From Polyangiaceae bacterium (GTDB lineage Bacteria > Myxococcota_A > Polyangia > Polyangiales > Polyangiaceae): DNA of 51,891 nucleotides. Every line of letters begins with the position of its first letter. Position 1 is the stretch's first letter. Position numbers and translations under genes: made by a program. A model generated the notes under the pieces. The model searched no databases and was not told the origin of the DNA. It worked only from the letters and a program-made list of their open reading frames with translations. Of the stretch, positions 24,809-42,964 are shown one piece after another. The DNA lies in assembly GCA_035414525.1 (NCBI GenBank), contig DAONZA010000008.1, forward strand, positions 1 through 51,891, in the 5' to 3' direction.

Positions 24809-25489
24809 ATGCCAAGACGCCGTCGTTCGGAAAACGAGGTCGAAGCCGTGCGAAACCAGATCTTGGACGAGGCATTGAACTTGTTCGTGGAGGCAGGTTG
24901 GCAAGGTTTTTCCATGCGCAAACTCGGCGCTCGCCTGGGCATCGCCGCGAAAACGGTCTACAACTACTTCGCCTCCCAAGACGAATTGTACCTCGGTCTG
25001 CTCACCCGCGGCTTTCATAGCCTCGGTCAGGCTCTTGCCAAAGCGGCCGAACCCCATACCAACCCATTCGAACGGCTCGACGCGCTGATCGATGCCTACG
25101 TGACGTTTGCCTTCGACAATACACACCTATACGGGTTGATGTTCACCTGGCATGTGCCCAAGTATGACGACTACGTGGGCACGGCGATGGAGAACACGGC
25201 TCGGGTCGAACTCGAGACGGCGCTCGACAGTCTCCGCCTGACTGCCACTACCATCGCTGCCTGCACCGGCACGCCGCCAGCAAGGGATGACCTGTACTTC
25301 ATCACGGTTCGCCTGTGGACGCAGTTACATGGTTATATCGCAGGCATCCACAACCACCTCATCGACTACATGCATCCTGACCCGGCTTCTCTGAAAGAGC
25401 GCATGATCACACGGATCAAAAATAGCGTTGTCCATGAGATTCTCGCTCTGAACCCCACCGCTGCGCGTGAGCAGCCAACCCTGCAGTGA
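24809..25489 (+). CDS. TetR/AcrR-family transcriptional regulator
   Basis: The N-terminal HTH is RNQILDEALNLFVEAGWQGFSMRKLGARLGIAAKTVYNYFASQDELYLGL. It sits immediately upstream of the glycyl-radical operon, with a 15-nt gap. Confidence 0.85.
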   Translation: MPRRRRSENEVEAVRNQILDEALNLFVEAGWQGFSMRKLGARLGIAAKTVYNYFASQDELYLGLLTRGFHSLGQALAKAAEPHTNPFERLDALIDAYVTFAFDNTHLYGLMFTWHVPKYDDYVGTAMENTARVELETALDSLRLTATTIAACTGTPPARDDLYFITVRLWTQLHGYIAGIHNHLIDYMHPDPASLKERMITRIKNSVVHEILALNPTAAREQPTLQ

Positions 25490-25504
25490 GGAGGGATAGC
25501 AGCG

Positions 25505-26437
25505 ATGACGGCCATTCTGACGAAGCACGAACCGTTGCTGCTCGAGGTGAAAGGCAACGCGCTTGACGACGGTCCGGGCATTCGCTCGGTGGTTTTTTTC
25601 AAGGGCTGTAAGCTGTCGTGCCGATGGTGTCATAACCCGGAAAGTTTGAGTCAAAACGCTGAGTTGTCATTTAATGTTGCGGATTGTATTTCCGGCTGTA
25701 CCCGATGTCGTGGCCACTGCCCCGAGGACGCCATCATGCCTGGTGTCGGCATCAATCGTTGGGCCTGCACCAGATGCTTCGACTGCGTACCGGTCTGTCC
25801 ATCGGGGGCTTTGCGCCAGGTGGGTAAGCCAGCCAACGTCGCCGAGTTGATGGCCAAGCTTCGCGCGGATAAGCCCTTTTATGAAGCCTCCGGAGGCGGC
25901 GTCACCTTTTCCGGGGGAGAGCCGACTCTAGCGATGGAGCTGCTTGGGGAACTTGCCGCGGCCTGTCGTGCCGAAGGTATACACACCCTTTTAGAGACTG
26001 CCGGATACTTTCGGTGGGAGCCGTTCGAACGAGGGGTGCTGCCGCATCTGAACGCCATCTATTATGACCTGAAACTCATGGATTCCGAGGACCACCGTGC
26101 GTATTGCGGGGTGCCGAACGAGCGGATCCTGGCCAATTTCAAGCGGTTGGTGGAGCTATCCCGTGCCGGGACGTTCGATCTGCAGCCGCGCATTCCGCTG
26201 GTCCCGGATATCACCGCGACGGAAGAAAACCTGACGGCGATCGGCCGATTTCTGCTCGATGTGGGGGTTCGTCAAGTCCGGTTGCTGGATTACAATCCAA
26301 CCTGGGTAGACAAGGGTCCTCAATTGGGAATTGCTAACAAATTCACTGAGTTAGATATTATGCGGACATGGCTGCCCCGCGGCCTGGCAGCCCGACTGCG
26401 CCAACATCTCGTTGATCTCGGCCTGGAGGCGATATGA
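25505..26437 (+). CDS. Glycyl-radical enzyme activating enzyme. It is a radical SAM enzyme with two auxiliary ferredoxin-like clusters, the TIGR02494-type seen with GRE eliminases
   Basis: The radical-SAM motif is CKLSCRWCHNPE (CxxxCxxC). There are two ferredoxin-like Cys clusters, CTRCRGHCPEDAI and CTRCFDCVPVCPSGAL, and a GGE motif (FSGGEPTL). The stop overlaps the GRE start (ATGA). Confidence 0.9.
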   Translation: MTAILTKHEPLLLEVKGNALDDGPGIRSVVFFKGCKLSCRWCHNPESLSQNAELSFNVADCISGCTRCRGHCPEDAIMPGVGINRWACTRCFDCVPVCPSGALRQVGKPANVAELMAKLRADKPFYEASGGGVTFSGGEPTLAMELLGELAAACRAEGIHTLLETAGYFRWEPFERGVLPHLNAIYYDLKLMDSEDHRAYCGVPNERILANFKRLVELSRAGTFDLQPRIPLVPDITATEENLTAIGRFLLDVGVRQVRLLDYNPTWVDKGPQLGIANKFTELDIMRTWLPRGLAARLRQHLVDLGLEAI

Positions 26438-29400
26438 CGTTCCCCAACACCTCTTCGTCCACTTCTTCCGGAACCGAGCATGCCATGACCATGGCCGAAC
26501 CGACCGCTGTGAAGCTGCCCCCGGTGGACCCGCTGGACATGCGCCCATTTCATCCGGACCCGGCGGTGAGCGATGCGGCGCGCCACAGTCCGCAACAATT
26601 GATCGTGCGTGGGCTGCTCGGTCTCATGGCCAAGCTCTACACCTGGCACCCCAGGTTGCGTGACGAATTGCGTATCAAGGACGGTTGGATCGATCTTGTG
26701 GTCGGCATTCGCACCCGCTCTGGCTCCGTGCGCACCGGAATCCGGTTTCGAGATGGCAAAGCAAAGGCGATGGGCCGCATTCCCGAGGCCGTCGATGTCG
26801 TGCTGGTATTCAAATCCGACGCTGAAGTTACGAAATTCCTCACGGCCACGCCAACCGAGCAGGTCCTCATGACGTTGCGCAACGACTTTTACGTCGATGG
26901 CAATACATCATCGCTAAACCTGTTCGTATATCTGATTTCCCGACTCCTTTTCCGCCAGCAAATCAAGAATCTGGCGAAAGATCTTCGTAACGATAACGCT
27001 GATCGTCGCACACAAGCCGGTGCCACGAATCCTGATCTGGCCCGGCAGATGCGCGAGCGTGCGGACTACCGCATTGCGACTTCGCAAGTCGATCCGGGTG
27101 TGAAATATCTCGAGGACCCCTACTTGCGTGATTTCAGTTTGAAGGATTTCCCGCGGCTAGCTAAGTTTTTGAACCGGCACCTCGACCATGACGCCGAGGT
27201 ATGCCCAGAATTGCCGAAACTATTGACCGAATGGCATCGAAAACACGGTTTCGAGCGAGATTCGAAGGGCAAGCCCTGGCACCCGGTGCTGCGCAAAGCC
27301 CTGGCCTATCAATATGTGATGGAGAATCGTCGGCCGATCATCCATGCCAACGACCTCATTGCCGGCACGACAACTACCAAGGAAACCGGTGTGGTTGTCT
27401 ATCCGGAGGGGCATGGGACGATGATCTGGGGCGAGCTGCTGACGGTGCCGCATCGACCTCTGAATCCTTACGGTGTCTCGGAGGAGACCCGAGAATTGCT
27501 GCATAAGGATGTATTCCCCTATTGGAGCCGTCGCAACTTCAAGGAATGGGTGCGAGACCACTACCGTTCGCCTTTGGGCCAGCGTATCGACGACCGATTT
27601 GCGGTCTATTTCGACTGGAAAACCGCAACCATCTCACACACGATCCCGGATTTCCCCAAGATGTTGCGGCTGGGAACGTCCGGCATCATCGCCGAGATCG
27701 AGGAAGCGATGGCTGCCGACTCGGATGAGGAGCGTAATACCACCCGGCGGGCATTCATTCTCGCGCTGGAGGGGTTGGGCACCTATTCTCGGCATTTGGC
27801 GGCGCAAGCGGCGTATGAGGCGGAGCGGGAAAGCGACCCCAGTCGGGCGGCTGAGTTGCGCCGACTGGCCGAGATCTGTAGCCAGGTGGTCGTGGGGCCA
27901 GCCCGCACGCTCGATGAGGCGGTGAATTCGGTGTGGATCACGTGGGTGGGGCTGCATATGGAAAGCACCAATGCCGGGCTGTCGATGGGCCGGTTGGACC
28001 AGTGGCTGCAGCCATATTTCGAGGCCGATATGGGCAAGTTGGAGACTTTGGAGCAGCGGCGGGCCTACACCAAACGTGCGATTGAACTGGTGGGTGACTT
28101 GATGCTGCGCTGCACGGACCACTTGCCGCTGACTCCCGACGTGGCCAACTACTACTTTGGTGGCAGTTCCTCGGATCAAGCGATCACGCTGGGCGGGGTG
28201 ACCCCCGAAGGCGAAGACGCGGTCTGCGATATGACGTATATATTCTTGAAAGTCACTGAAATCCTTAGTCTTCGCGACCCAAATGTGAACGCTAGATTCC
28301 ATCTGGGCAAAAACAGCCAAGCGTACCTGAAGCGTCTTTGCGAGGTCAATCTGATCACGGCGGCGACTCCGTCGTTGCATAACGACGAGGTCGTGGGGAA
28401 GGCCTTGAGCCGCTATGGCTATGAGGTACGTGACGTGCGTGATTGGGCGGCGACCGGGTGTGTGGAGCCGACGCTGTCGGGAAAGCATATCGGCCATACC
28501 AATTTCCAGATGCTCAGTCTGGTGGCGGCGCTGGAGATGGCGTTGAACGACGGCTGGCATCCGCTGATGGATTGGAAGGTGGGACCATCTACCGGTTCGA
28601 TCGAGGCTGGCGATTTTGCGAATTTCGACCAGTTTTTCGAGGCTTACCGGCAGCAGGTGGCTTTTCTGGTCGACCGATCGATCGAGTACAACGAGATGTT
28701 GGGTAAGGCGCATCAGCAGCTTCGTCCGACGCCACTGCTGTCCAGCCTGATCGAGGGCACCATTGCATCGGGAAAGGATGTTACGTATGGGGGAGCCAGG
28801 TACAACAGTTCTGGGGCTGCGTGCATCGGGCTGGTTGACGTCATCGATTCGATGTTGGTGATCCAGAAGCTCGTATTCGAGCAACGAGTTGTGTCATTCG
28901 CTGACCTCAAGCGGGCAGTGGACACGAATTTCGCCAACGATCCGCTGTTATTGGCGCAGGTATCCCACAAAGTAGCGCTTTTTGGCTCGGGCAACGAAGA
29001 CGCCGTGGCGATGGGCAACCGCATTACCAAGATGGTGCAGTCGCTGTATGATCGGTATACCAACTACCGGGGAGGCCGTTATGCGGCTGGGTTCTGGTCG
29101 ATGTCTACGCATGTATCTTACGGCACGCTGGCTGGAGCTTTGCCGTCGGGGCGGTTGGCGGGCAAGCCATTTACGCCAGGTCTGACTCCCACACCGGGGG
29201 CATCGCCGAACCTATTGGACAATATCCGTGATGTGGCCAGGTTGGATCCGGCCAATATGCCGAACAATATTGCCTTCAATGTGAAGGTGGTGCCATCGGC
29301 CCATGAGTCGCGGGAGCGGACGGTCGACACGATGGCCGCGTACGTGAAGTCCTATTTTTCGCTGGGGGGCATGCAAATGCAGCTCAACGCAGTCACGTCC

Positions 29401-29541
29401 GATACCCTTCGCGACGCGATGGTTCATCCGGAGAACTATCGCAATTTGCTCGTGTGGATTTCCGGGTATAATGCCTATTTCGTCACGCTGAACAAGCAGA
29501 TGCAGCTCGAGCTGATCGAGCGCGCTGAGTACGGTATCTAG
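26434..29541 (+). CDS. Glycyl radical enzyme, eliminase-like (Cys-x-Glu active-site loop). It is unusually long (1035 aa), with an N-terminal extension of about 240 aa that contains an SCP2-like domain
   Basis: The catalytic thiyl loop is WAATGCVEPTLSG, with the Cys codon at 28459-61. The C-terminal glycyl-radical motif reads LLVWISGYNAYFVTLNKQMQLELIERAEY, with the Gly codon at 29464-66. This aligns with the canonical RVxGYSAxFxxL motif but has W in place of R. The N-terminal residues of about 50-170 (WIDLVVGIRTRSGSVRTGIRF...AVDVVLVFKSDAEVTKFLTATPTEQVLMTLRNDFYVDGNTSSLNLFVYLISRL) resemble an SCP2 sterol-carrier fold. Confidence 0.9.
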   Translation: MTFPNTSSSTSSGTEHAMTMAEPTAVKLPPVDPLDMRPFHPDPAVSDAARHSPQQLIVRGLLGLMAKLYTWHPRLRDELRIKDGWIDLVVGIRTRSGSVRTGIRFRDGKAKAMGRIPEAVDVVLVFKSDAEVTKFLTATPTEQVLMTLRNDFYVDGNTSSLNLFVYLISRLLFRQQIKNLAKDLRNDNADRRTQAGATNPDLARQMRERADYRIATSQVDPGVKYLEDPYLRDFSLKDFPRLAKFLNRHLDHDAEVCPELPKLLTEWHRKHGFERDSKGKPWHPVLRKALAYQYVMENRRPIIHANDLIAGTTTTKETGVVVYPEGHGTMIWGELLTVPHRPLNPYGVSEETRELLHKDVFPYWSRRNFKEWVRDHYRSPLGQRIDDRFAVYFDWKTATISHTIPDFPKMLRLGTSGIIAEIEEAMAADSDEERNTTRRAFILALEGLGTYSRHLAAQAAYEAERESDPSRAAELRRLAEICSQVVVGPARTLDEAVNSVWITWVGLHMESTNAGLSMGRLDQWLQPYFEADMGKLETLEQRRAYTKRAIELVGDLMLRCTDHLPLTPDVANYYFGGSSSDQAITLGGVTPEGEDAVCDMTYIFLKVTEILSLRDPNVNARFHLGKNSQAYLKRLCEVNLITAATPSLHNDEVVGKALSRYGYEVRDVRDWAATGCVEPTLSGKHIGHTNFQMLSLVAALEMALNDGWHPLMDWKVGPSTGSIEAGDFANFDQFFEAYRQQVAFLVDRSIEYNEMLGKAHQQLRPTPLLSSLIEGTIASGKDVTYGGARYNSSGAACIGLVDVIDSMLVIQKLVFEQRVVSFADLKRAVDTNFANDPLLLAQVSHKVALFGSGNEDAVAMGNRITKMVQSLYDRYTNYRGGRYAAGFWSMSTHVSYGTLAGALPSGRLAGKPFTPGLTPTPGASPNLLDNIRDVARLDPANMPNNIAFNVKVVPSAHESRERTVDTMAAYVKSYFSLGGMQMQLNAVTSDTLRDAMVHPENYRNLLVWISGYNAYFVTLNKQMQLELIERAEYGI

Positions 29542-29898: not shown

Positions 29899-31392
29899 TT
29901 ACGGCGCCAGATCCATCTCGCCGACGTAGCTATGCACCGATCCGTTCGACTCATCGAGTCCGGAGAAAAACACCACCCATCGATTTGGTTCGTACGTAAG
30001 TGGCGAGGTGTAGGGCTTAACCGGCGTATATCCCACGTAGCGAATATCACCGTTGGATGGCAATCCCGTGATGGGAACCGAATGCCATGTCCAGCTATCG
30101 CCCCGGTCCATGCTCACGCCAAGGGATATAGTCGCGCCGGGGCCGGCGTCGAGCAGGTATAGCGCTCCATGGCTAGCGAATTTGAGCTTGGCGTAGTTGC
30201 TTACGCATCCCACTGGCACGATCGTGGGCGGCTGCGCGAGCTCGCTGTCGAAGCGAAGGAGTTCCGTGCATTGTTTTTCACTTTTCGGTAAATAGGAGAG
30301 CGCGTACAACGTGCCCTGCGCGTCGTGTTCGAGGTCCGAGGGATAGGCGCTGACTATGCCTGGAACGGGTTGCGCTGGCGCACGACGGAATAATTGGCTC
30401 AGCGACGACGTATTTCCAACGTAGGCGGTGGAAGCGAGGTAGCTTGCGTTATTGCCCCCCGCGGGGTCGAACTCCCCGGCGTAAAGGATGAGTTGTGAAG
30501 AACCGAGGGACGGGTGTCCGGTCAAGATTGGATAAAGCAGGTATGCGGGGGCGGCTGTCAACGTGCCGATGGTGCCGTATTGCGCACCGCTGTACCACCA
30601 CTGTACCACACGTCCCCAGGCAGAGTCGGCCAGTGCCCATACTGTCACCCCGTCGGTGGTGGTTGCGATTCCCTGGTAGCCGTTGGACTCCGCGGTCCAT
30701 TCGTCATGGTTGCTGTAGGTATCGAAACGGAGCGCGCCGCTGCCATCCCGCGTGGAGAAGATCAGGTGGTAGAATCGCGAGTTTCTTCCCGTCGTCCCCG
30801 CTCCTCCTGGAAAACAGAGCACATCTTGCGTGGCGGGGCGCATACAATCGAAGATGAGGTGCAGCCGCTGCGATATGTCCATCACGATCCCAGGGGACTG
30901 ATGCGGATAAGCGATACGCGCAACTTCCACCCAAGCATGGAGGGCGCTTCCGGCCTCGCGTCTCATGATTGCCGCATAACGATCCGCTACGGAGGGGGGA
31001 TAATGGGTATGGACCGCATACCAGAATGCGCCGTCGCCCACGATTTTCGGCAGGTGGGCATTCCATGTGGCAGGTGTCGTCTGGGGGGAAGGTCCGGTGT
31101 GGATCAGCCCCACCCGCAATTCGGCCGGGATGAACGGCTCGATGGCGCTTTCCTCCCCGGCATCCTTAGACGAGTCGATCGATGAATCCCCGCCGATTTC
31201 ATCGGAAGCATCGACTGGGGTGGGCTCTTCGGGCGAACCATCCCATGGAATATAGGAATCAGAAACATCATCCGGGTCGATGCTGGCGTCGAGCACAGGA
31301 TTGGTCGCTCCGGCGGAAACGTGGCTCTCGCGGTCCGCGGCGCAAGCGGGTGGGACAATGACGAGCGCCGCGAGGCAAAGCGCGCGTTTCAT
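29899..31392 (-). CDS. Secreted protein with a BNR/Asp-box, probably a beta-propeller (sialidase/glycosidase-like fold); function unknown
   Basis: Signal peptide MKRALCLAALVIVPPACAA. The Asp-box is SMDRGDSWTWH (S-x-D-x-G-x-[ST]-W). An acidic low-complexity N-terminal region follows the signal. Confidence 0.55.
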   Translation of the reverse strand: MKRALCLAALVIVPPACAADRESHVSAGATNPVLDASIDPDDVSDSYIPWDGSPEEPTPVDASDEIGGDSSIDSSKDAGEESAIEPFIPAELRVGLIHTGPSPQTTPATWNAHLPKIVGDGAFWYAVHTHYPPSVADRYAAIMRREAGSALHAWVEVARIAYPHQSPGIVMDISQRLHLIFDCMRPATQDVLCFPGGAGTTGRNSRFYHLIFSTRDGSGALRFDTYSNHDEWTAESNGYQGIATTTDGVTVWALADSAWGRVVQWWYSGAQYGTIGTLTAAPAYLLYPILTGHPSLGSSQLILYAGEFDPAGGNNASYLASTAYVGNTSSLSQLFRRAPAQPVPGIVSAYPSDLEHDAQGTLYALSYLPKSEKQCTELLRFDSELAQPPTIVPVGCVSNYAKLKFASHGALYLLDAGPGATISLGVSMDRGDSWTWHSVPITGLPSNGDIRYVGYTPVKPYTSPLTYEPNRWVVFFSGLDESNGSVHSYVGEMDLAP

Positions 31393-32008
31393 TCTCCAAG
31401 GATACAGTGATGCGGTGATGGGAGCAAGGTCGAGTTGTGCGGGAGTGGAGAGTTCCGGCGACTATCTGGTTGCAAGACAACCCGATGACGCGGTTTCAAA
31501 GCGAATGAGCGGGACAGGCTTTCGTTTCCGCAAGGTTGAACGCATCGGCATGGGTGATTAATGTGTAAGCAATGGAAATAATTGATGAATATGAATCTGT
31601 GCTCGTCCATGGCTCGGGAGTCTTGTGGCGTGGGAGTATCCGGCTATCGACGCCGCTGCGGGGAAAAACCTCGGCATCGCCGACAGAGTCGTGATGGCGC
31701 AACACGAGCCCGCCCTGGTCGAGATCCAACCTGTCGAAAAGGCTCAACAAGGAAGTATGTCAATGCGGTGAACTCGTTATGATGCAGTATCGACGTGGTG
31801 GGCGCTTGGGGCTGCAGCGGTCGTTTTGGGTGTAGTCAACCACCATGGGAACGCGTCAAGGGGGTGTTGCGTTGGCAGGGCACATGCTCGAAAAAGCATG
31901 GAAGTCCCGGCGGGATCGGCCAAGATGACGGGTGGAGACTTTTTCCGTTGGCGTCTTCGAAGGTTCTCCGGTAGACCAGGGAAAACCCTTGGAAAATGAG
32001 GCAAATCC

Positions 32009-33583
32009 ATGTCCACTTCTCTGGATCGCAGGGACTTATTGCAAGTCATGGGCTACGGTGCGGCTACCGTATCGCTGCCTTTCGTGGCGGGTTGTGGTCG
32101 CACGGAAATCCAGCGTTTGACTTCCAAGTCACCGAGTTTGCAGGAACCGGGCAAGGATTCGGGAGCGGTGAGCGTGAGTCATTTTGATGCTTTCGGTGTC
32201 GATGAGGGATTGATACGCAAGGTATTATCCCGGGCGTTGTCGCGGGGGGCTTCTTTTTCGGAAATATTTTTGCAGCACAGGGTATCGCATTGGGTGGGTA
32301 TGGAAGATGGCGAGGTCAATAGGGCCTATTCCGAGGTGGGTCTTGGCGCGGGCATTCGCGTGATTCAAGGGGATACGACCGGATTTTCATTTACGGAGGA
32401 CCTGACGCCCGGGGCCTTGCTCGAAGCCGCGGACATGGCTTCCGCGGTGGCCGATGGCCCTTCCAGCCCGCGTTCGATAACCCTCACGCCTCGTATCGTC
32501 GTGTCTCGCTACACCGTGGAAACGCCGTGGACCGAAGTCGGCATCGACCGCAAGCTTCCGATCGTTCAGCGGGCGGAAAAAGCGGCGCGAAATCATGATA
32601 CGCGAATCATCAAGGTGACGGTGGCTCTTCAAGATGAGACCTCCCACATCCTGATCGCCAATTCCGAGGGGCTGCTGGTCGCCGACGAGCGGCCCATGGG
32701 CGTCCTTTCCGTGTCCTGTGTAGGAGAAAACAAGGGAAAAACTGAGACGGGGTACTGGACCTTCGCCCAGCGCGATGGGATTCGTTTTCTCACGCCAGCT
32801 CATATCGACGACACGGGAACCACGGCAGCGCGCAATACGGTGTTGCTTTTTGAAGCCGTGTCTCCGCCGGTGGGAGACATGCCGGTCGTCCTTGGGCCAG
32901 GAAATCCAGGACTGCTCTTGCACGAGGCCATTGGGCACGGGATGGAAGCGGATTTCAATCGCAAGGGGATTTCGATTTATGCGAACCGGATTGGAAAAAG
33001 AATCGCTCCGGAGGGTGTGACCATCGTGGATGGGGGCACTGGACGACAGCGTGGTTCGCTCAACATCGACGATGAAGGGCATCCCACCGAGGAGACGGTA
33101 TTGGTGGAAAACGGCGTATTACGCACCTATTTGCACGACCGTATTTCAGCGCAGCACTTCAAGGCGCCCCGTACAGGCTCGGGACGTCGTGAATCCTATT
33201 GTTATCCACCGGTGCCGCGAATGCGCAACACTTATATGCTTGCGGGGAAAGAAAGCCCGGAGGAGATCATCGCTTCCGTCAAAAAGGGGATTTACGCCGA
33301 GATCTTCACCAACGGACAGGTGATGATTGGTGCCGGGGATTTTACCTTCTATTTGAAACACGGAAGGCTCATCGAAGATGGGAAACTGACCCATGTGATC
33401 AAGGATGCGAACCTCATCGGCAATGGCCCAAACGTTCTCGAGAAGGTGGCGATGATCGGCAACGATTTGAAGCATATCACCGGGGCTGGCTATTGTGGCA
33501 AGGATGGGCAGGGCGTTCCGGTGGGTTTTGGATTACCGACCTTAAAAGTGAGTGGTATTTCCGTGGGTGGGAGGGGAGCATGA
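32009..33583 (+). CDS. tldD: TldD-family metallopeptidase carrying a twin-arginine (Tat) signal peptide with a lipobox
   Basis: The N-terminus is MSTSLDRRDLLQVMGYGAATVSLPFVAGCG. It contains the Tat motif S-L-D-R-R-D-L-L-Q and then the lipobox VAGC. The metal-binding HExxxH motif is HEAIGHGMEADF. An AAATGAGG RBS lies upstream. Confidence 0.9.
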   Translation: MSTSLDRRDLLQVMGYGAATVSLPFVAGCGRTEIQRLTSKSPSLQEPGKDSGAVSVSHFDAFGVDEGLIRKVLSRALSRGASFSEIFLQHRVSHWVGMEDGEVNRAYSEVGLGAGIRVIQGDTTGFSFTEDLTPGALLEAADMASAVADGPSSPRSITLTPRIVVSRYTVETPWTEVGIDRKLPIVQRAEKAARNHDTRIIKVTVALQDETSHILIANSEGLLVADERPMGVLSVSCVGENKGKTETGYWTFAQRDGIRFLTPAHIDDTGTTAARNTVLLFEAVSPPVGDMPVVLGPGNPGLLLHEAIGHGMEADFNRKGISIYANRIGKRIAPEGVTIVDGGTGRQRGSLNIDDEGHPTEETVLVENGVLRTYLHDRISAQHFKAPRTGSGRRESYCYPPVPRMRNTYMLAGKESPEEIIASVKKGIYAEIFTNGQVMIGAGDFTFYLKHGRLIEDGKLTHVIKDANLIGNGPNVLEKVAMIGNDLKHITGAGYCGKDGQGVPVGFGLPTLKVSGISVGGRGA

Positions 33584-34908
33584 ACGCGACGCTTATGCAA
33601 CTTGTTGAAAATGCGCTTATTTTGGCGAAACGGCAGGGCGCAGCGGCGGCGCGGGCAAGCGTATGGCGCATGCGGGAAAGTGGTGTGGAGTGGCGCGATG
33701 GGAAGCTCGACCGCTTGCGTGAGTCTGTCCACAAGGGCCTTTCCATCTCCTTATTTGTCGATGGGCGTTATTCTTCCCACACGACAAGCGATTTGCGTCC
33801 GGAAGCCATGGAGCTTTTCGTGGCCGAGTCGGTGGCGATGACCAAGGTGCTTCAGCCGGATCCCCATCGCAAGCTTCCCCCTTTGGAGCGCTGCCAAGAG
33901 AGGTTTGAGGGCGATCTTCTGCTGTTGGACAGGGACAATCTTGGTGTCATCGACGGTGCGGCGCAAAAAAAGCAGGCGATGGAGCTGGAACGAGCGATGC
34001 GGCAGGCCGAGGGCGCGGATCTCATCCTTTCGGCTACGGGAGCGATGCGTGTCTACCACACGATGAGCGCGATGAGGGATAGTCAGGGCACGAAAGGCGA
34101 GCGGGAATCTTCGGTTTTCGCTCGCTCGGCTTCCGCTACGGTTCGAGGCGAAGGGGATCGAAAACCTTCCGGGGGAGACTACGCTGCTACTCATCATTAT
34201 GCCGAACTTCCTTCGATGGACCTCATGGGCAAAGAAGCGGTGCGAAGGGCGTTGGCGGGGATTGGAGAAACCCCTTGGAAGAGTGGTAAGTATCCTTGTA
34301 TCATTGAGAACCGGGTGGCGGATCGTTTGCTCGGGGGGCTATTGGGGCCGTTGGGGGGCAACTCCTTGCAGCAAAAACGCTCGTATATGTCGGGTAAACT
34401 CGGAGAAAAGGTGGGGTCGATCCTCCTTCACATCGACGATGACCCTCTGCTGCCAAAGGGGGCGGCTTCTCGAACGTATGATTACGAAGGGATGAGCACC
34501 CGACGTCGTCCGATTTTCGAAAAAGGAGTTTTGCGAACGTATTTGTTGGATACCTATTACGCTTCCAAATTGGGGTGGGAGCCGACGGTCGGGGAGACGA
34601 GCAATCTAGTATTTCCCAAAGGAAAACAAGATCTTGCGGGATTGTTGCGCACGATGGGAAGAGGAATCCTCGTCACGGGGTTTTCCGGGGGCAATTCCAA
34701 TGCAGCGACGGGTGATTTTTCGATTGGCATCCGGGGGCATTGGGTGGAGTCCGGGCGTATCGTCAAACCCGTGGCCGAAATGAATCTTGCGGGCAACCAC
34801 CTCACGTTCTGGCAAGCCTTGGCGGAGCTTGGTTCGGATCCATACCCGTATCGTGGGGCACGGACCCCTTCGATGCGGTTCCATGAAGTGCAGTTTTCCG
34901 GGGTGTGA
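33580..34908 (+). CDS. pmbA: PmbA/TldE-family protein, the partner of TldD; it has no signal peptide
   Basis: The ATG at 33580 overlaps the tldD stop (ATGA). TldE-like sequence is seen throughout, for example GFSGGNSNAATGDFSIGIRGHWVESG. It lacks the HExxxH motif, as expected for TldE. Confidence 0.85.
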   Translation: MNATLMQLVENALILAKRQGAAAARASVWRMRESGVEWRDGKLDRLRESVHKGLSISLFVDGRYSSHTTSDLRPEAMELFVAESVAMTKVLQPDPHRKLPPLERCQERFEGDLLLLDRDNLGVIDGAAQKKQAMELERAMRQAEGADLILSATGAMRVYHTMSAMRDSQGTKGERESSVFARSASATVRGEGDRKPSGGDYAATHHYAELPSMDLMGKEAVRRALAGIGETPWKSGKYPCIIENRVADRLLGGLLGPLGGNSLQQKRSYMSGKLGEKVGSILLHIDDDPLLPKGAASRTYDYEGMSTRRRPIFEKGVLRTYLLDTYYASKLGWEPTVGETSNLVFPKGKQDLAGLLRTMGRGILVTGFSGGNSNAATGDFSIGIRGHWVESGRIVKPVAEMNLAGNHLTFWQALAELGSDPYPYRGARTPSMRFHEVQFSGV

Positions 34909-35547
34909 TTTCCCTCCGGTATCGGGAATTGGGTGGGAGAAGCTGCTTGGAGAAGCGAGAACGCTGGCGGGAGGTTGGAGAAGGCCGAGGGGGCCGTTTG
35001 TCTAACGTATTGAATTGGACTGAGAACGGGATTCCGCATCGAGGACCCAGATGGGTGATTAGGCCATTCAAGCTATCGCTGTGGCGGGGCTTGATTGTAT
35101 TACGGATCGATATTACGGGCACACTCGAGAGGCGTCTCGAACTTGTATCAGGCTTGGAGGCATGCTGTCCTTGCAGGGAGGCAGGCCTTATCAGGTTCAG
35201 GACGAGATATTTTTCGGTTGTCGTCTCCATCTTTCACGCGACGTTTTGCGGGCCCGGGGTTGCGCGACCGATTTCTACGACAGTATTGGGTTTTACGGCC
35301 ATTTGACGCATACCTCTCGGGGCAGTCACGGCCTTGCGACAGGAGAGTGGGCGCTCGGGTGCATCCGTGTACCGATGCATGACGGGCTGGTGCATGCGGA
35401 CGAAAAAGGGGGAGACTATTCGACATTTTCGCGAAGGGTTTGGTGGCATGGCACGGGCGCAGGGATTGCACCGATCACGGTGGTATTTGCCAGGAATAAT
35501 GGGTGTTGTGGTGGCCACCGTATCGACGTGCGACTAGGCTGTCGAGC

Positions 35548-36918
35548 ATGCGTTGGTTTGTAAAATATTTGGGTTTCGGGTCTTATGCTGTTGCTTGTTT
35601 TGCCTGTGGTTCCTCCGAGCCGTCACTGGAGCCTGTCGCGCAGCAGGTGCAACCGATTGTGGGGGGCGTTGTGGATACGCCACAGGAAAACGATGCCGTG
35701 GTGATGATCTACGCCGGGACGAGCATTTTTGGAGGGGGGTTATGTACTGGCGCCCTCATCGCGCCGAACGTTGTTCTGACCGCCCGGCACTGCGTATCCA
35801 AGACCACGGAATACGTGGATTGTTATCAAGACGTGATATCGGATTTGGATCCGCAGACGCTGTTGATCATGCGGGGGTATGATGCTGCTCACAATCCACA
35901 AGGAAAGTTGGCGAAAGGTAAGCATATCGTTCACGACGGTTCGACGAGTTTGTGTGGACATGATTTGGCTTTGATTGTGTTGGACAAGGATGACGTGACG
36001 GGCGAGACGCAGTCTCAGATTCCGATCGTTCCGCTGCGGGTGCGTGTGAACAAGGGACCGGAGATTGGCGAGGTATTCACGGCGGTGGGCTATGGTTTGA
36101 CGGACCCGAAGGATATGAACAGTTCGGGCGTGCGATATCGTCGGGATGGCGTGAAAGTATTGCGGTTCGTCATGGGTACCGGGGACGCGGATTTTACGGG
36201 AACGCAGTCGATTTGCCAGGGAGACTCGGGAGGACCAGCGATTTCGGCGAATCATGCGGTGATAGGGGTGACCTCTCGGGGGTTGAACTGTATGGGGGAT
36301 GACAACATCTGGACGCGCACGGATCGGTTCAAGGCATTGATCGATGAAGCCGTGCGTCTCGCTGGAACCACGTATACGAGCGAGGAGGGGAAGCAATACG
36401 ATGGGACGCCGAGGCTGGAGTTATGCAACGATGGGGTATGTCCCGAGGGGTTGACGTGTGTGCAGGGATTTCATGGTCAGTATTGCACGCGGTCGTGTGA
36501 TCTGGCAGCGCCGAATTGTGCTTCGGGACAAACGTGCGGGGACGTGGGAGCGGGCAGTGGCTATTGTTTTATGAACGAGCCGTGCTCGGCACCCGAGGAT
36601 TGTGCGGAGGGGCTTCGTTGTGTGAACGATGGCAAGAATTACTGCTCGCCGCTCTGTGGTCTGCAGGGGGAGTGTCCGGTCGGGTTTTCCTGCGCGCCGG
36701 AGGTAGGAGTATGTTTCAAGGAGAAGAGCGCGGGGTCGGTGTATAGCCCACCGGAGTCTGGTGGATGTGCCTACGCGCCCGTATCTCATTCTGCCGGGTG
36801 GTTTGGGTTGGGTATGCTGCTGCTCATGGGATCGGCATCCCGATTTCGGCGTGCGAAACGCGATGATGGAAAGAGGGATATGGGAACTCGAGTCTCTGCT
36901 CGAAGACGAACGATTTAG
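35548..36918 (+). CDS. Secreted trypsin-like (S1) serine protease zymogen with C-terminal Cys-rich repeats and a MYXO-CTERM-like tail
   Basis: Signal MRWFVKYLGFGSYAVACFACGSS. A pro-region ends at the classic mature N-terminus IVGG. The catalytic His sits in LTARHC and the catalytic Ser in CQGDSGGPA. The C-terminal Cys-rich modules are of the CxxGxxC type. The terminal GGCAYAPVSHSAGWFGLGMLLLMGSASRFRRAKR matches the MYXO-CTERM pattern. Confidence 0.85.
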   Translation: MRWFVKYLGFGSYAVACFACGSSEPSLEPVAQQVQPIVGGVVDTPQENDAVVMIYAGTSIFGGGLCTGALIAPNVVLTARHCVSKTTEYVDCYQDVISDLDPQTLLIMRGYDAAHNPQGKLAKGKHIVHDGSTSLCGHDLALIVLDKDDVTGETQSQIPIVPLRVRVNKGPEIGEVFTAVGYGLTDPKDMNSSGVRYRRDGVKVLRFVMGTGDADFTGTQSICQGDSGGPAISANHAVIGVTSRGLNCMGDDNIWTRTDRFKALIDEAVRLAGTTYTSEEGKQYDGTPRLELCNDGVCPEGLTCVQGFHGQYCTRSCDLAAPNCASGQTCGDVGAGSGYCFMNEPCSAPEDCAEGLRCVNDGKNYCSPLCGLQGECPVGFSCAPEVGVCFKEKSAGSVYSPPESGGCAYAPVSHSAGWFGLGMLLLMGSASRFRRAKRDDGKRDMGTRVSARRRTI

Positions 36919-37240
36919 CCTCGCGGCTCTTTTTGTTGTGCGGCGAACTCCAGCATCATCTGCAGTGCGGTTTCGAGATCTTCTCGTTGGGGAGGTTCGG
37001 GCAAGCTCATGAGCTGGCGTTTGAGTTGCAATAGATGGGTTCCGAACTGCTGATAGCGAAGACGGAAAGAATCCGAGGGGGCGTCTTGGATCCAACGCGC
37101 AACGATCTCTTGCAACTCGTCGAGATCGCTATCGACGAGCAGTTGAGCCATTTGGGAAGCCATGAGGTGAGGCATTGGGGGAAAGTCTAGCTCGGTCTTT
37201 GACGAAACGCATGGGTCGAGGCATAGGGATGGCAGTGCGA

Positions 37241-38473
37241 ATGAAGCGATACGATATGGACCGAATGTGCCTGGGAGCGATCGCGTTATGGTTGCTCGTG
37301 CTTGGGAGTTGCAAGTCGAAGGGGGCATCTTCCGACTCGCCGCAGGAGCAAAGTACGGAGATTCGGCCGTCTTCGACGGTGGTTTTGTCGGCGGCGCCGG
37401 AGCAATCTGAGGCAGCGGGAACGCATCGTCCGGTGAACAAGAAACTCGAGGTGGGGCAAAAGGTCGACATACCGAGTGGAGCGTTTTTGTCTGGAAGCAC
37501 GCCTGGGGATCGAGGCAGAGACGCTTCCTTGGAGCCCGCGTTGGTCAAGGTGGAACTTGGGGCCTATTCGATCGATCGGCTACCATATCCCAATGATCCG
37601 TCGATGGAACCTCGCACGGGGGTGACACGACGTGAGGCCGAGCAGTTATGTGCGGAGCGCAAGCAGCGGTTGTGTACGGAATTGGAGTGGGAGCGAGCGT
37701 GTAAGGGGCCGGAAGAGAATGCCTATTCCACGGGTCAAGGATGGGATGGGGCGTGCGAAAAACAGCCGCAGGCGTGTGCGAGCGGATTCGATGTGGTGGG
37801 CATGGGAACGATTCGCGAATGGACCTCGAGTGATTGGGATGTGGGCGATGGTGAGAGCAAGACCTCGGCGGTGTTGCGTGGAGGAAGGAAGGGTGTAGCG
37901 GATACGGAGCATCGTTGTGCGCGAAGGGAGCTTGCGGATGCGCAAGCCCAGGGGATGGATCTGGGGTTTCGTTGTTGTGGAGGTGCGGCCAATGCGGCGC
38001 GTGTCTCGAAGCCTCCCACGCTGCCGACGTTTCGCAGAGCCAAGCTCGATGCTTCCCAGGTAGCGAGCATGCTCAGGACGGTTCCACAGCTTGCGGATCT
38101 TGGTGAGGTGAAGTTTTTTCAAGAGCCCGACGATGTCAACCGAGTGGTGGCTCGCGGCGACGCGGGAAGGCAAGGCAATACACTGACGACCAGCCCCTTG
38201 TTGTGGAGCCCGGCACTCGGCGAAGAGCTGTTGGTCATGGCGGGTTTGGGAGCGTCTGGATCGTCGTTCATCGCGGCGTTCCATCGTCTGCCCGATGACC
38301 GTTATCGGATAGCATCGACGTTCGTGCTCAAAAACGATCCAGGGCCGATCGTGCTTGGATTCAACGGCTGGGTGAAAAATCGTCTGACTTGGAGTAGTTG
38401 TTGGGGTTGTATTGGGGAAGAAGGTCTCATCGTTCATCGCGATCAAGGGCGAATCGTGATCGAGCAGCGATGA
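37241..38473 (+). CDS. Lipoprotein with an FGE-sulfatase (SUMF1-like, DUF323) domain
   Basis: Signal and lipobox MKRYDMDRMCLGAIALWLLVLGSCKS; start chosen at 37241, while the ORF track starts at 37175. FGE-like motifs are present: IPSGAFLSGS..., ELEWERACKG, GTIREWTSSDWD, VLRGGRKG, GFRCCGG. Confidence 0.75.
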   Translation: MKRYDMDRMCLGAIALWLLVLGSCKSKGASSDSPQEQSTEIRPSSTVVLSAAPEQSEAAGTHRPVNKKLEVGQKVDIPSGAFLSGSTPGDRGRDASLEPALVKVELGAYSIDRLPYPNDPSMEPRTGVTRREAEQLCAERKQRLCTELEWERACKGPEENAYSTGQGWDGACEKQPQACASGFDVVGMGTIREWTSSDWDVGDGESKTSAVLRGGRKGVADTEHRCARRELADAQAQGMDLGFRCCGGAANAARVSKPPTLPTFRRAKLDASQVASMLRTVPQLADLGEVKFFQEPDDVNRVVARGDAGRQGNTLTTSPLLWSPALGEELLVMAGLGASGSSFIAAFHRLPDDRYRIASTFVLKNDPGPIVLGFNGWVKNRLTWSSCWGCIGEEGLIVHRDQGRIVIEQR

Positions 38474-39341: not shown

Positions 39342-40697
39342 ATGAAAAATTTGAGTTTGTGTAGCGAATTTGAGCAATTGTGCGCTCGGGGAAGGGCGAA
39401 GAGGCGGGGAAGAATTGTTTCTCTTATATCTTTTCTTTTCGTATTTTTGGGAGCGGGCCCCCTGCGGGCGCAATCCCAGTCGCAGAGTCCCTTTCATCTG
39501 GTCGAGCAATTGGCTCGCGTTTTGGTGTTGGTTGAGAATCACTATGTCCAACCTGTCGATCGAGCGAGGATGGTGGAGGGCGCGGTCAAGGGGATGGTGG
39601 CTGAACTTGATCCGCATTCTTCCTATCTTTCGCCGAAAGAATATGAAGAGTTTCGAAATGACACCGAGGGGCATTTCGTAGGGATCGGTGTGGAAGTGGA
39701 TGCACGCGATGGGCTCATCACTGTGATTCGTCCCATGGAAGGATCGCCTGCGGAGCGTGCCGGTTTGCGTCCGGGTGATCAAGTGATTGCCATCGATGAT
39801 TGGCCTACCCAAGCCAAGCCGCTCGACCAAGTCGTGCGACGCATTCGTGGTCAGCAAGGAACACCCGTATCGCTTCTGCTTCGTCGTCCTGGGGTGGCGC
39901 AACCGCTTCGTGTGCGCATTGTGCGCGCGCAGGTCCACGTGCGAAGTGTGATCGGGAAACGTCTCGAGGGCAACGTGGCGTATGTGGGCATCAAGCAGTT
40001 TCAACGGGGCACTCATCAGGAGTTTTTGCAGGTGCTTGGGGACTTGCGTTTGCAGCGAGACGAGCCTCTTGAAGGCATGATTTTGGACTTGCGCGCCAAT
40101 CCCGGAGGTCTTGTTCACGAATCGGCGCAGGTGGCGGATGAGTTGCTCGATGGGGGTATCATCTTTACGACGCGCGCTCGTGGTCGAGTGTTGGACGAGG
40201 TGACGGCGTCATTGGGTGGTGCGGCGAGTCGTCTTCCGCTAGCGGTGTTGGTCAACGAATTGACGGCGAGTGCGGCGGAGCTTGTGGCCGGGGCTATACA
40301 AGATCACGGCAGAGGGATCATCGTGGGAGCGAAGACATTTGGAAAAGGGTCCGTGCAAAGCATTGTGGAGTTGCCGGAGGGGGCGGCGCTCAAGCTTACG
40401 ACAACGTTGTACTACACGCCGCTGGGCAGAACGATTCAGGCGGAGGGGATAACGCCGGGCGTAGCCGTGCAGCAACCGGGCTCGGGAGATGGTTTTCCCA
40501 TTGTTCGTGAGCAAGATATCGAGGGACATCTTGCTTCACCGAACGCGGCGCCGCGAGTTTCCTCGCCTTCTACTGCGACGACCAGTGAGATCATGATTCC
40601 GAGGCATGTGCCGAGCAATCCGGTGGGGCGAGGGGATCGAGCCTTGTCGATTGCGTATCAGCTTTTGTTGAGTGATCTCATTGCGCGAAAAAAATAG
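39342..40697 (+). CDS. ctpA: C-terminal processing peptidase (S41A family, Ctp/Prc) with a PDZ domain
   Basis: The PDZ domain reads GIGVEVDARDGLITVIRPMEGSPAERAGLRPGDQVIAIDD. The S41 motifs are LDLRANPGGLV and GAKTFGKGSVQS. The N-terminal signal is hydrophobic. Confidence 0.9.
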   Translation: MKNLSLCSEFEQLCARGRAKRRGRIVSLISFLFVFLGAGPLRAQSQSQSPFHLVEQLARVLVLVENHYVQPVDRARMVEGAVKGMVAELDPHSSYLSPKEYEEFRNDTEGHFVGIGVEVDARDGLITVIRPMEGSPAERAGLRPGDQVIAIDDWPTQAKPLDQVVRRIRGQQGTPVSLLLRRPGVAQPLRVRIVRAQVHVRSVIGKRLEGNVAYVGIKQFQRGTHQEFLQVLGDLRLQRDEPLEGMILDLRANPGGLVHESAQVADELLDGGIIFTTRARGRVLDEVTASLGGAASRLPLAVLVNELTASAAELVAGAIQDHGRGIIVGAKTFGKGSVQSIVELPEGAALKLTTTLYYTPLGRTIQAEGITPGVAVQQPGSGDGFPIVREQDIEGHLASPNAAPRVSSPSTATTSEIMIPRHVPSNPVGRGDRALSIAYQLLLSDLIARKK

Positions 40698-42893: not shown

Positions 42894-42964
42894 ATTCCAA
42901 GGATATTTTTACTGATTCGGTGATATAGACGCGACAGGTGGGTTCCTTTCGCAAGGAGATAGAT

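Follow-up and report, generated by a model that had tools for sequence, protein, structure and literature searches.

The metalloprotease TldD and its partner TldE (PmbA) of Escherichia coli form an obligate heterodimer, described as a hollow sphere of ~65 Å (PMC5810440). In vitro each of the two subunits also forms homodimers as judged by AUC, the TldD homodimer being described as not stable enough, and activity needs both subunits (PMC5810440). TldD/E is said to occur in ~60% of bacterial genomes (PMC10885120). What it does physiologically is known for a few toxin and antitoxin substrates, and published work treats the enzyme as cytoplasmic. In the literature searched under TldD, PmbA and 'modulator of DNA gyrase', we found no description of an exported TldD/E.

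The natural hitch-hikers of the Tat pathway known to us are either redox enzymes loaded with cofactors or a copper chaperone pair; DmsAB, FdnGH and the Streptomyces pair MelC1/MelC2 are among them. Since the known natural examples are cofactor-containing redox enzymes, a protease pair would be an unusual passenger. Tat-dependent lipoproteins (Tat/SPII class, as in SignalP 6.0) have been described in Streptomyces and haloarchaea, and we know of none that carries a signal-less partner. Both HybOC and the 135-kDa PaoABC are carried by Tat through the signal of one subunit (PMC4273604).

Within the window, the whole stretch of 51,891 nucleotides that was analysed, a bicistronic operon is predicted to encode a form of the TldD/TldE (PmbA) metalloprotease that works outside the cytoplasm, with the following features:

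31998–32001, + strand: GAGG, Shine–Dalgarno-like, 7 nt 5' of the TldD start; duplex −5.6 kcal/mol
32009–33583, + strand: TldD open reading frame, 524 aa
32009–32092, + strand: predicted Tat-type lipoprotein signal peptide, TldD residues 1–28 (homologue conservation; AF2 pLDDT <50, helix 7–19)
32084–32095, + strand: lipobox V26-A27-G28-C29 (Cys conserved in homologues; +2 residue Gly)
32096–32179, + strand: unstructured tether, TldD residues 30–57 (homologue linkers; AF2 residues 1–53 pLDDT <50)
32180–33583, + strand: TldD metalloprotease body, residues 58–524 plus stop (Pfam domains, match to E. coli TldD, motifs, model)
33570–33574, + strand: GGAGG, Shine–Dalgarno sequence for PmbA within the TldD 3' end, 5 nt ahead of the ATG; duplex −10.7 kcal/mol
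33580–34908, + strand: PmbA/TldE open reading frame, 442 aa from ATG 33580, without HExxxH and without a signal peptide

The PmbA start codon ATG (33580–33582) and the TldD stop codon TGA (33581–33583) form a 4-nt ATGA overlap, so that the coordinates of the two reading frames agree with the translational coupling put forward in the original prediction. Because an in-frame TGA (31997–31999, sharing bases with the GAGG) lies three codons upstream, ATG 32009 is the first possible TldD start, and it is the sole candidate start upstream of the twin-arginine (RR) motif. A scan for promoters and terminators over positions 31350–35650 yielded none above shuffled expectation.

Both proteins match all three PmbA_TldD Pfam domains, TldD with values of 7e-12 (PF01523), 9e-16 (PF19290) and 3e-61 (PF19289). 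TldD matches E. coli TldD (5NJ5_A) at 1e-102 and contains the active-site motif HEAIGH at residues 305–310 (32921–32938), together with Cys496 (33494–33496) as putative third metal ligand, whose context gagyCgkdgq aligns with gvgvCgkegq of the E. coli protein; HEAIGH and Cys496 were invariant in a MAFFT alignment of 33 homologues. The AF2 model of TldD had a mean pLDDT of 80.9, its body matched 5NJC with a TM of 0.87, and the top PDB matches to the model were all E. coli TldD chains (TM 0.87, 40% identity). Residues 1–53 were modelled with pLDDT <50 and are disordered or signal-like. Because its score of 390.1 bits for NF008006, the E. coli-type TldD equivalog, lies under the NCBIfam cut-off of 513, we regard TldD as a member of the family and not as an E. 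coli-type equivalog; PmbA likewise stayed under the cut-off of the E. coli PmbA equivalog (168.5 against 438 bits). Encoded beside TldD and combining PmbA_TldD domains with the lack of an HExxxH motif, PmbA is a partner of the non-catalytic type. Its closest solved relative is BT3649 of B. thetaiotaomicron, a 'putative modulator of DNA gyrase' from structural genomics (1VPB; 2e-86, compared with 4e-41 for E. coli PmbA), which aligns from residue 8, has no signal peptide and is a structure without a described function.

The amino terminus of TldD, MSTSLDRRDLLQVMGYGAATVSLPFVAGC29GR, belongs to an extension of ~57 residues in which LDRRDLLQ is followed by 16 uncharged residues, the lipobox VAG-C29 and the unstructured tether. 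The n-region MSTSLD precedes R7-R8 (32027–32032) of the motif LDRRDLLQ, and the uncharged h-region, V13–G28, is rich in Gly and Ala. At the level of sequence the features of a lipoprotein (SPase II) signal are present, with the lipobox V26–C29 closing the h-region and a positive n-region (R7, R8), and mature TldD is predicted to begin with a lipid-modified Cys29. Described at the outset as textbook, the twin-arginine motif turned out slightly off consensus, carrying Leu for the Phe found in 96% of relatives and Gln for Lys, and the Tat HMMs PF10518 and TIGR01409 (Pfam, NCBIfam) did not match the 40-residue amino terminus even at E≤10; the proposed succession of RR motif, hydrophobic region and lipobox was itself backed by comparative evidence. 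As the window sequence misses these HMMs, we relied on homologue conservation for the Tat assignment. A 61%-identical orthologue passes TIGR01409 with 21.4 bits (cut-off 16.7).

Among the 120 closest database TldD homologues, 104 contain RR-x-hydrophobic-hydrophobic within their first 45 residues, and the window motif lines up column for column with their [NST]-RR-[DE]-F-L-K. The RR-anchored profile of these 104 sequences reads [NST]-R-R-[DE]-F(96%)-L(87%)-K, followed by a Gly/Ala-rich h-region, a conserved Pro and xxGC. A Cys is found ~23 residues past the RR in 97/104, mostly inside [LAIV][AS]GC, with an h-region devoid of charged residues in 90 of the 97, and the linkers of the homologues span 9–40 aa (median 21) and are rich in A, P, G and T. 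In the MAFFT alignment, which comprises 33 full-length homologues, the two arginines R7 and R8 do not vary, and conservation is at least 90% at F10, P24 and C29; one member (P0021) bears the NCBI name 'twin-arginine translocation signal domain-containing protein'. Of the 16 homologues without the motif, seven are shorter calls or fragments; the first residue of the other nine falls within the h-region or lipobox, as if the start had been mis-called. In the public JGI annotation, the protein identical to ours (P0001) has 511 aa and begins at Met14, so that the RR motif is lost, and the recurrence of such a start inside the h-region in nine other entries points to a systematic gene-caller error. 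Gene callers often place the start of these TldD genes within the signal peptide, as in P0001 and nine or more other entries, and the export signal is thereby hidden from annotation. Overall, the predicted Tat-type lipoprotein signal on TldD has strong comparative support.

To compare the two subunits across genomes, we used 80 species-representative genome loci from many phyla. TldD and PmbA are adjacent in 77 of these, and a Tat signal, read by hand, is found on TldD in 65–66 of the 80, a count that leaves out L025, L059 and L069 as regex false matches and in which L048 ends at a contig edge. The predicted lack of a signal peptide on PmbA held throughout: none of 76 adjacent PmbA proteins shows an amino-terminal extension or signal (lengths ~436–445 aa where complete), and none of 120 database homologues has a signal (median length 442 aa). 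The median of the maximum amino-terminal hydrophobicity was 0.56 for PmbA homologues versus 1.78 for TldD. In the window PmbA, residue 4–8 already aligns with residue 13–21 of solved or profiled PmbA proteins, and there is no room for a signal because the upstream frame merely overlaps the TldD 3' end. A signal hidden behind an upstream alternative start was considered and rejected, as longest-ORF extensions were either absent or GC-rich read-through of the TldD 3' end without a hydrophobic stretch. The 4-nt overlap is common to 18 loci and all intergenic gaps are ≤178 nt. The lipobox Cys is lineage-specific, being present in Myxococcota and Bacteroidales and absent in members of the Ignavibacteria, Zixibacteria, Calditrichota and Acidobacteriota; Bacteroidales relatives (Carboxylicivirga) likewise combine a Tat-lipobox TldD with a signal-less PmbA. 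What had been treated as a curiosity of a single locus is part of a large, old and widespread clade. As far as genes can tell, one signal for two subunits, in every pair examined, is the genomic signature of Tat hitch-hiking, and its restriction to TldD, conserved across many phyla, suggests that the folded pair is exported together.

In an unbootstrapped, midpoint-rooted NJ tree, lineages with a signal-less TldD are nested among Tat-bearing ones, and PmbA is signal-less in these lineages too. Within Archangium, TldD signals have decayed to a charged h-region without Cys, whereas the window protein retains an intact h-region and lipobox; Chondromyces crocatus and C. apiculatus also have intact versions. 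Given correct binning, two TldD/PmbA pairs coexist in one Bacteroidales MAG: L031 has the Tat signal, L074 has none, and a separate PmbA accompanies each TldD. Identity is 69% between the two TldDs and 54% between the two PmbAs. The TldD with the predicted Tat signal is thereby one that keeps a private PmbA partner. In the 52-kb window we found neither a second TldD/PmbA copy nor tatA/tatC, the lack of tat genes being uninformative for a stretch of this size.

From these data we infer dependence on Tat, lipidation, formation of the heterodimer, its co-export and the range of substrates, and we consider it reasonably probable that a ~102 kDa heterodimer is assembled in the cytoplasm, exported by Tat hitch-hiking, lipid-anchored in Myxococcota and Bacteroidales, and active as what is probably a general extracytoplasmic peptide-trimming protease. 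Translational coupling would provide the subunits in a 1:1 ratio, and metal loading and assembly in the cytoplasm would give a closed heterodimeric shell as in E. coli. The twin-arginine signal of TldD would then direct the ~102 kDa complex to Tat for passage over the inner membrane, and PmbA, having no signal of its own, would travel as hitch-hiker. In the lipobox lineage, signal peptidase II would cut ahead of Cys29, leaving the complex on the periplasmic side of a membrane, attached through a lipid anchor and a ~28-residue tether. There the pair may trim unfolded peptides processively and without regard to sequence, its role being general peptide degradation or quality control and not dedicated peptide maturation.

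Several other readings of the locus were weighed. TldD might be exported alone via Tat and work as a monomer or homodimer, with PmbA staying in the cytoplasm, where it would be unused, paired with another TldD, or left behind as a pre-export chaperone or inhibitor. This is conceivable because both E. coli subunits homodimerise in vitro by AUC (PMC5810440), and cytoplasmic PmbA partners can exist, since a further TldD/PmbA pair that lacks the signal is present in at least one genome; co-export, moreover, is itself deduced from the genes. We nevertheless regard it as unlikely, given that the E. coli TldD homodimer is described as insufficiently stable and that activity needs both subunits (PMC5810440). 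PmbA lacks an active site, yet it is full-length, adjacent and often coupled in 76–77 of the 80 loci across many phyla, and the genome with two TldDs has two PmbAs, which is unexpected if the exported TldD needed none. The RR motif of the window gene could also be unused, either because translation begins at Met14 or because a degenerate RRDLLQ no longer engages Tat, leaving TldD as a Sec-type lipoprotein or a cytoplasmic protein. The Met14 start of P0001, the miss of PF10518 and TIGR01409, the Leu in place of a 96%-conserved Phe and the decay of signals in some relatives all speak for this reading, which we still hold to be very improbable. A later in-frame start with a better ribosome-binding site had been named as one point at which the prediction could fail; the ATG at codon 14 has just AGGGA, 13 nt off, and is thus served by a worse placed Shine–Dalgarno sequence than ATG 32009. 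Residues 1–13 align with the conserved n-region and RR motif of the homologues, a start at Met14 would leave a signal without a positive n-region, and nine other entries are truncated likewise inside the h-region. The intact h-region and lipobox also set the window protein apart from truly decayed relatives. In E. coli, AmiC uses RRRLLQ, and replacement of Phe by Leu is tolerated in SufI, which likewise counts against an unused motif.

The exported pair could instead be dedicated to maturing or degrading one particular peptide, either secreted or ribosomally synthesised (RiPP), a link drawn in the original prediction. E. coli-type TldD/E does mature microcin B17, klebsazolicin and a microcin C analogue, but this known RiPP processing takes place inside the producer cell (PMC10885120). 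When flank ORFs of the 80 loci and the window were clustered all against all, no conserved third gene emerged, be it a RiPP precursor, a transporter or a chaperone; apart from an antisense artefact, the sole family returned was TldD/PmbA. Without a conserved neighbour, the pair behaves as an autonomous module. The lack of a nearby precursor is not decisive against a RiPP role, because E. coli-type TldD/E genes usually lie outside biosynthetic clusters (PMC10885120). The window neighbours comprise DNA polymerase I, a TetR-family regulator, a glycyl-radical enzyme with its activase, proteases, a dehydrogenase and a vault-like protein; the radical-SAM gene of the window is this activase, adjacent to its glycyl-radical enzyme. 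With no gene family conserved beside the pair, this set of neighbours, and a spread over many phyla that argues for a general role, the link to peptide maturation was not borne out, and we rate it lowest of the readings, as highly improbable. A MYXO-CTERM assignment for the downstream trypsin-like protein was not confirmed by NCBIfam.

Co-export of TldD and PmbA by Tat remains the reading that we prefer. Whether it extends to a large, phylogenetically deep class of TldD/E 'pencil-sharpeners' outside the cytoplasm, exported as pre-assembled hitch-hiking heterodimers, we consider evenly balanced. Such a class would be the first protease and among very few non-redox complexes on this route, with exported members making up about one fifth of the 150 nearest TldD sequence clusters and with gain or decay of a single signal repeatedly shifting the whole enzyme between cytoplasm and periplasm; the TldD family as a whole comprises 13,157 clusters at E≤1e-3. 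If so, TldD/E would also have a function in the cell envelope, such as scavenging of peptides or quality control, in mostly uncultured Myxococcota, Bacteroidales, Ignavibacteria, Acidobacteriota and related phyla. The Tat field would gain a simple, cofactor-light, two-subunit natural hitch-hiker, and evolution a clean case of one signal setting the compartment of two proteins.

Compared with E. coli TldD/TldE (MEROPS M103; 5NJ5 and related; PMC5810440), the window pair has the same three-domain fold in both subunits, an HExxxH plus Cys metal site in TldD only, a non-catalytic partner and a TldD that is ~40% identical; presumably it also shares the closed heterodimeric shell and the processive, sequence-independent cleavage of unfolded peptides. 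Whereas the E. coli proteins are signal-less and cytoplasmic, the window TldD adds a signal and tether of ~57 residues. In having one signalled subunit and a signal-less partner in one operon, the pair resembles HybO/HybC ([NiFe] hydrogenase 2) and PaoABC (aldehyde oxidoreductase) of E. coli, and at ~102 kDa its size is comparable to the 135 kDa of PaoABC (PMC4273604); co-export is proven for HybOC and PaoABC, and for TldD/PmbA it is read from the genes. With Tat/SPII lipoproteins, TldD has in common an RR motif followed by an h-region that ends in a lipobox Cys. Unlike the known hitch-hikers, the cargo would be a shell-forming peptidase that holds one metal ion, the signalled subunit would be the catalytic one, and the carrier would, in this lineage, also be a lipoprotein.

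The two genes lie on the forward strand in different reading frames:

32009-33583, +, TldD, catalytic subunit, 524 aa
TldD residues 305-310, +, HEAIGH motif
33580-34908, +, PmbA (TldE), 442 aa from ATG 33580, the first sensible start
5 nt upstream of the PmbA ATG, +, GGAGG

The PmbA ATG (33580-33582) overlaps the TldD stop codon TGA (33581-33583), the ATGA overlap described in the original prediction. TldD and PmbA alike match all three PmbA_TldD Pfam domains. E. coli TldD (5NJ5_A) matched the window TldD at 1e-102 (residues 68-522), which also carries the conserved Cys496; a search of the window PmbA sequence for HExxxH found none. The closest solved relative of PmbA is B. thetaiotaomicron BT3649 (1VPB, 2e-86), with E. 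coli PmbA at 4e-41, and both window proteins score below the NCBIfam E. coli equivalog cut-offs. Judged from these matches, the two are family members and not E. coli-type orthologues. The predicted masses of the mature pair are 53.2 and 48.5 kDa.

The amino terminus of TldD is ~50–57 residues longer than that of E. coli TldD, consisting of MSTSLD-RR-DLLQ, 16 uncharged residues (VMGYGAATVSLPFVAG), Cys29 and a 28-residue stretch, followed by the conserved FDAFGVD opening the fold. An AlphaFold2 model (33 homologues) gave pLDDT <50 for residues 1–53 with a single helix (7–19) and mostly high confidence for the remaining fold, the body of which superposed on E. coli TldD with a TM of 0.87. An in-frame TGA three codons upstream of ATG 32009 makes a longer amino terminus impossible. 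This ATG is preceded by GAGG at 7 nt and the ATG at codon 14 only by AGGGA at 13 nt, favouring a start upstream of the RR motif, as predicted, over a later site. JGI annotates the identical protein (P0001) as a 511-aa product beginning at Met14 (window 32048), which lacks the motif. We consider this a gene-caller error, because nine other entries are likewise truncated inside the h-region or lipobox and because residues 1–13 align to the conserved motif of full-length homologues.

RR-x-hydrophobic-hydrophobic is present in the first 45 residues of 104 of the 120 closest database homologues (53–100% identity); the other 16 comprise seven shorter calls or fragments and nine entries beginning inside the h-region or lipobox. 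Such start calls, affecting the window protein and at least eight relatives (P0001, P0026, P0041, P0047, P0056, P0057, P0074, P0088, P0107), appear to be a systematic error hiding Tat signals from annotation. The RR-anchored profile of the 104 reads [NST]-R-R-[DE]-F(96%)-L(87%)-K and continues through a segment rich in Gly/Ala to a conserved Pro and xxGC. The Cys lies ~23 residues past RR in 97 of them, and the segment is uncharged in 90 of these 97. An unanchored MAFFT alignment likewise showed invariant R7 and R8, with F10, P24 and C29 conserved at ≥90%. Past the Cys comes a segment of variable length (9–40 residues) with abundant A/P/G/T, in keeping with a putative tether.

The twin-arginine motif and lipobox Cys of the original prediction are conserved in homologues, but the window motif, called textbook there, is slightly off consensus: Leu occupies the Phe position and Gln the Lys position. 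Its 40-residue amino terminus gave no match to the Tat models of Pfam and TIGRFAM, although the amino terminus of an orthologue with 61% identity scores above the TIGR01409 cut-off (21.4 bits vs 16.7). These features make the Tat assignment appear somewhat weaker for the window gene than for the clade, where it looks strong. Some database entries already carry a Tat domain label, one member (P0021) being named by NCBI [quoted passage not shown].

For PmbA, predicted to be signal-less, the alignment with PmbA structures and profiles indeed begins as early as residue 4–8 of the window protein. Its 120 closest homologues all measure 407–457 aa (median 442), none with a hydrophobic amino-terminal stretch, and the median maximum amino-terminal hydropathy was 0.56 vs 1.78 for TldD. 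We further sampled 80 species-representative genome loci, with titles including Myxococcota, Eisenbacteria, Ignavibacteria, Zixibacteria, Calditrichota, Acidobacteriota, KSB1 and others, as well as Bacteroidales, cultured Carboxylicivirga among them. TldD adjoins PmbA in 77 of the 80, every gap being ≤178 nt and the 4-nt overlap common to 18 pairs. No room for a PmbA signal was found in the 76 pairs with a placeable PmbA start; alternative upstream starts were absent or represented read-through of the TldD 3′ end. Read by eye, the TldDs divide into 65–66 with a genuine Tat signal, 11 with none and three unclear cases. The lipobox Cys occurs mainly in Myxococcota, related deltaproteobacterial MAGs and Bacteroidales, and Tat signals in other phyla look SPase I-cleaved.

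Of the best 150 TldD clusters (50% identity) in an exhaustive search with 13,157 hits at E ≤ 1e-3, ~30 have Tat-like amino termini, which argues that the putatively exported form is frequent and varied and not limited to a single case. Intact Tat-lipobox TldDs also occur in the cultured species Chondromyces crocatus and C. apiculatus. On a rough, midpoint-rooted neighbour-joining tree of the protease bodies without bootstrap, eight signal-less TldDs (Bradymonadia, Nannocystaceae, Myxococcales MAGs) form one clade nested among Tat-bearing clades, with three more scattered singly elsewhere. A search seeded with an Archangium orthologue revealed decayed signals adjoining intact ones among close relatives: P0397 has RQ for RR, a charged h-region and no Cys, and in Archangium primigenium (P0400) nothing is left of the RR motif, the hydrophobic stretch or the Cys. 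This suggests a recent return of the pair to the cytoplasm. A further locus (L066:6001-7437), closely related to intact Tat-lipobox TldDs, has a visibly decayed or lost signal, the marks in this group being e.g. RR to RQ, acidic h-region residues and a lost Cys.

No gene family conserved beside TldD/PmbA was found in the 80 loci, and the genes around the pair in the window have no relation to peptide natural products, leaving the proposed role in maturing RiPPs or secreted peptides without support here, yet the E. coli genes are themselves found outside RiPP clusters (PMC10885120). The module is autonomous and broadly spread, which would fit a general function in which the pair trims or clears away unfolded peptides within the envelope. 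Besides DNA polymerase I and a dehydrogenase, the neighbourhood contains:

24809-29538, +, TetR-family regulator, 310-aa radical-SAM activase and 1035-aa PFL-like glycyl-radical enzyme in a row
29902-31392, -, unannotated predicted lipoprotein (MKRALCLAALVIVPPAC...), 497 aa, divergent from TldD, no Pfam or NCBIfam family found
35503-36915, +, trypsin-family protease (PF00089, 1.3e-22) with Cys-rich region, ~600 nt from PmbA
37175-38470, +, FGE-sulfatase domain protein
39342-40694, +, S41 C-terminal processing peptidase with PDZ domain
42938-45424, +, 829-aa protein with Major Vault Protein shoulder domain (PF11978, 1.8e-27)

The radical-SAM gene was rejected as a RiPP maturase, being the activase of the adjacent glycyl-radical enzyme. 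The tail of the trypsin-family protease (GGC, hydrophobic stretch, RRAKR) resembles a MYXO-CTERM-type sorting signal, with no NCBIfam match. Together with the S41 peptidase and the FGE-sulfatase domain protein it forms a loose cluster of exported proteases in this region, one not conserved in related loci. The 829-aa protein, with weaker Vault_3 and Band_7/SPFH matches and no NCBIfam family, represents a bacterial vault-protein-like gene.

In E. coli, TldD and TldE pair obligately as a heterodimer, a hollow shell of ~65 Å. The metal (Zn or Fe) is bound by TldD alone; a homodimer of TldD was described as "not stable enough"; and the enzyme works processively from the N-terminus of unfolded peptides, trimming them (PMC5810440; PMC10885120). 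For the window pair, TldD and PmbA would assemble in the cytoplasm, be exported together by Tat hitch-hiking on the TldD signal and, in this lineage, next be lipidated at Cys29. With a single conserved signal for two conserved, coupled subunits, we favour this as the simplest account and consider it reasonably probable, the steps from a signal to co-export of the complex being inferred. Export of TldD alone, the main rival, seems unlikely: it would not readily explain why a private PmbA devoid of catalytic activity is so strictly retained, also in a genome with a second pair. One Bacteroidales MAG (JBNKRJ01), assuming correct binning, encodes two pairs, L031 with a Tat signal and L074 signal-less, in which each TldD has a separate PmbA (TldDs 69% identical, PmbAs 54%). 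Less likely still, and improbable in our view, is a non-functional or Sec-type signal, as the window h-region and lipobox are intact, unlike those of relatives with clearly decayed signals.

The TldD/E protease, Tat signals, Tat/SPII lipoproteins and hitch-hiking are already known; full-text searches, with most subscription journals outside their scope, found no paper on an exported or Tat-dependent TldD/E. Tat can carry complexes that are already folded and assembled, and HybOC and the 135-kDa PaoABC cross via the signal of one subunit (PMC4273604); the arrangement of the window pair, with a signal on TldD and none on PmbA, resembles these.
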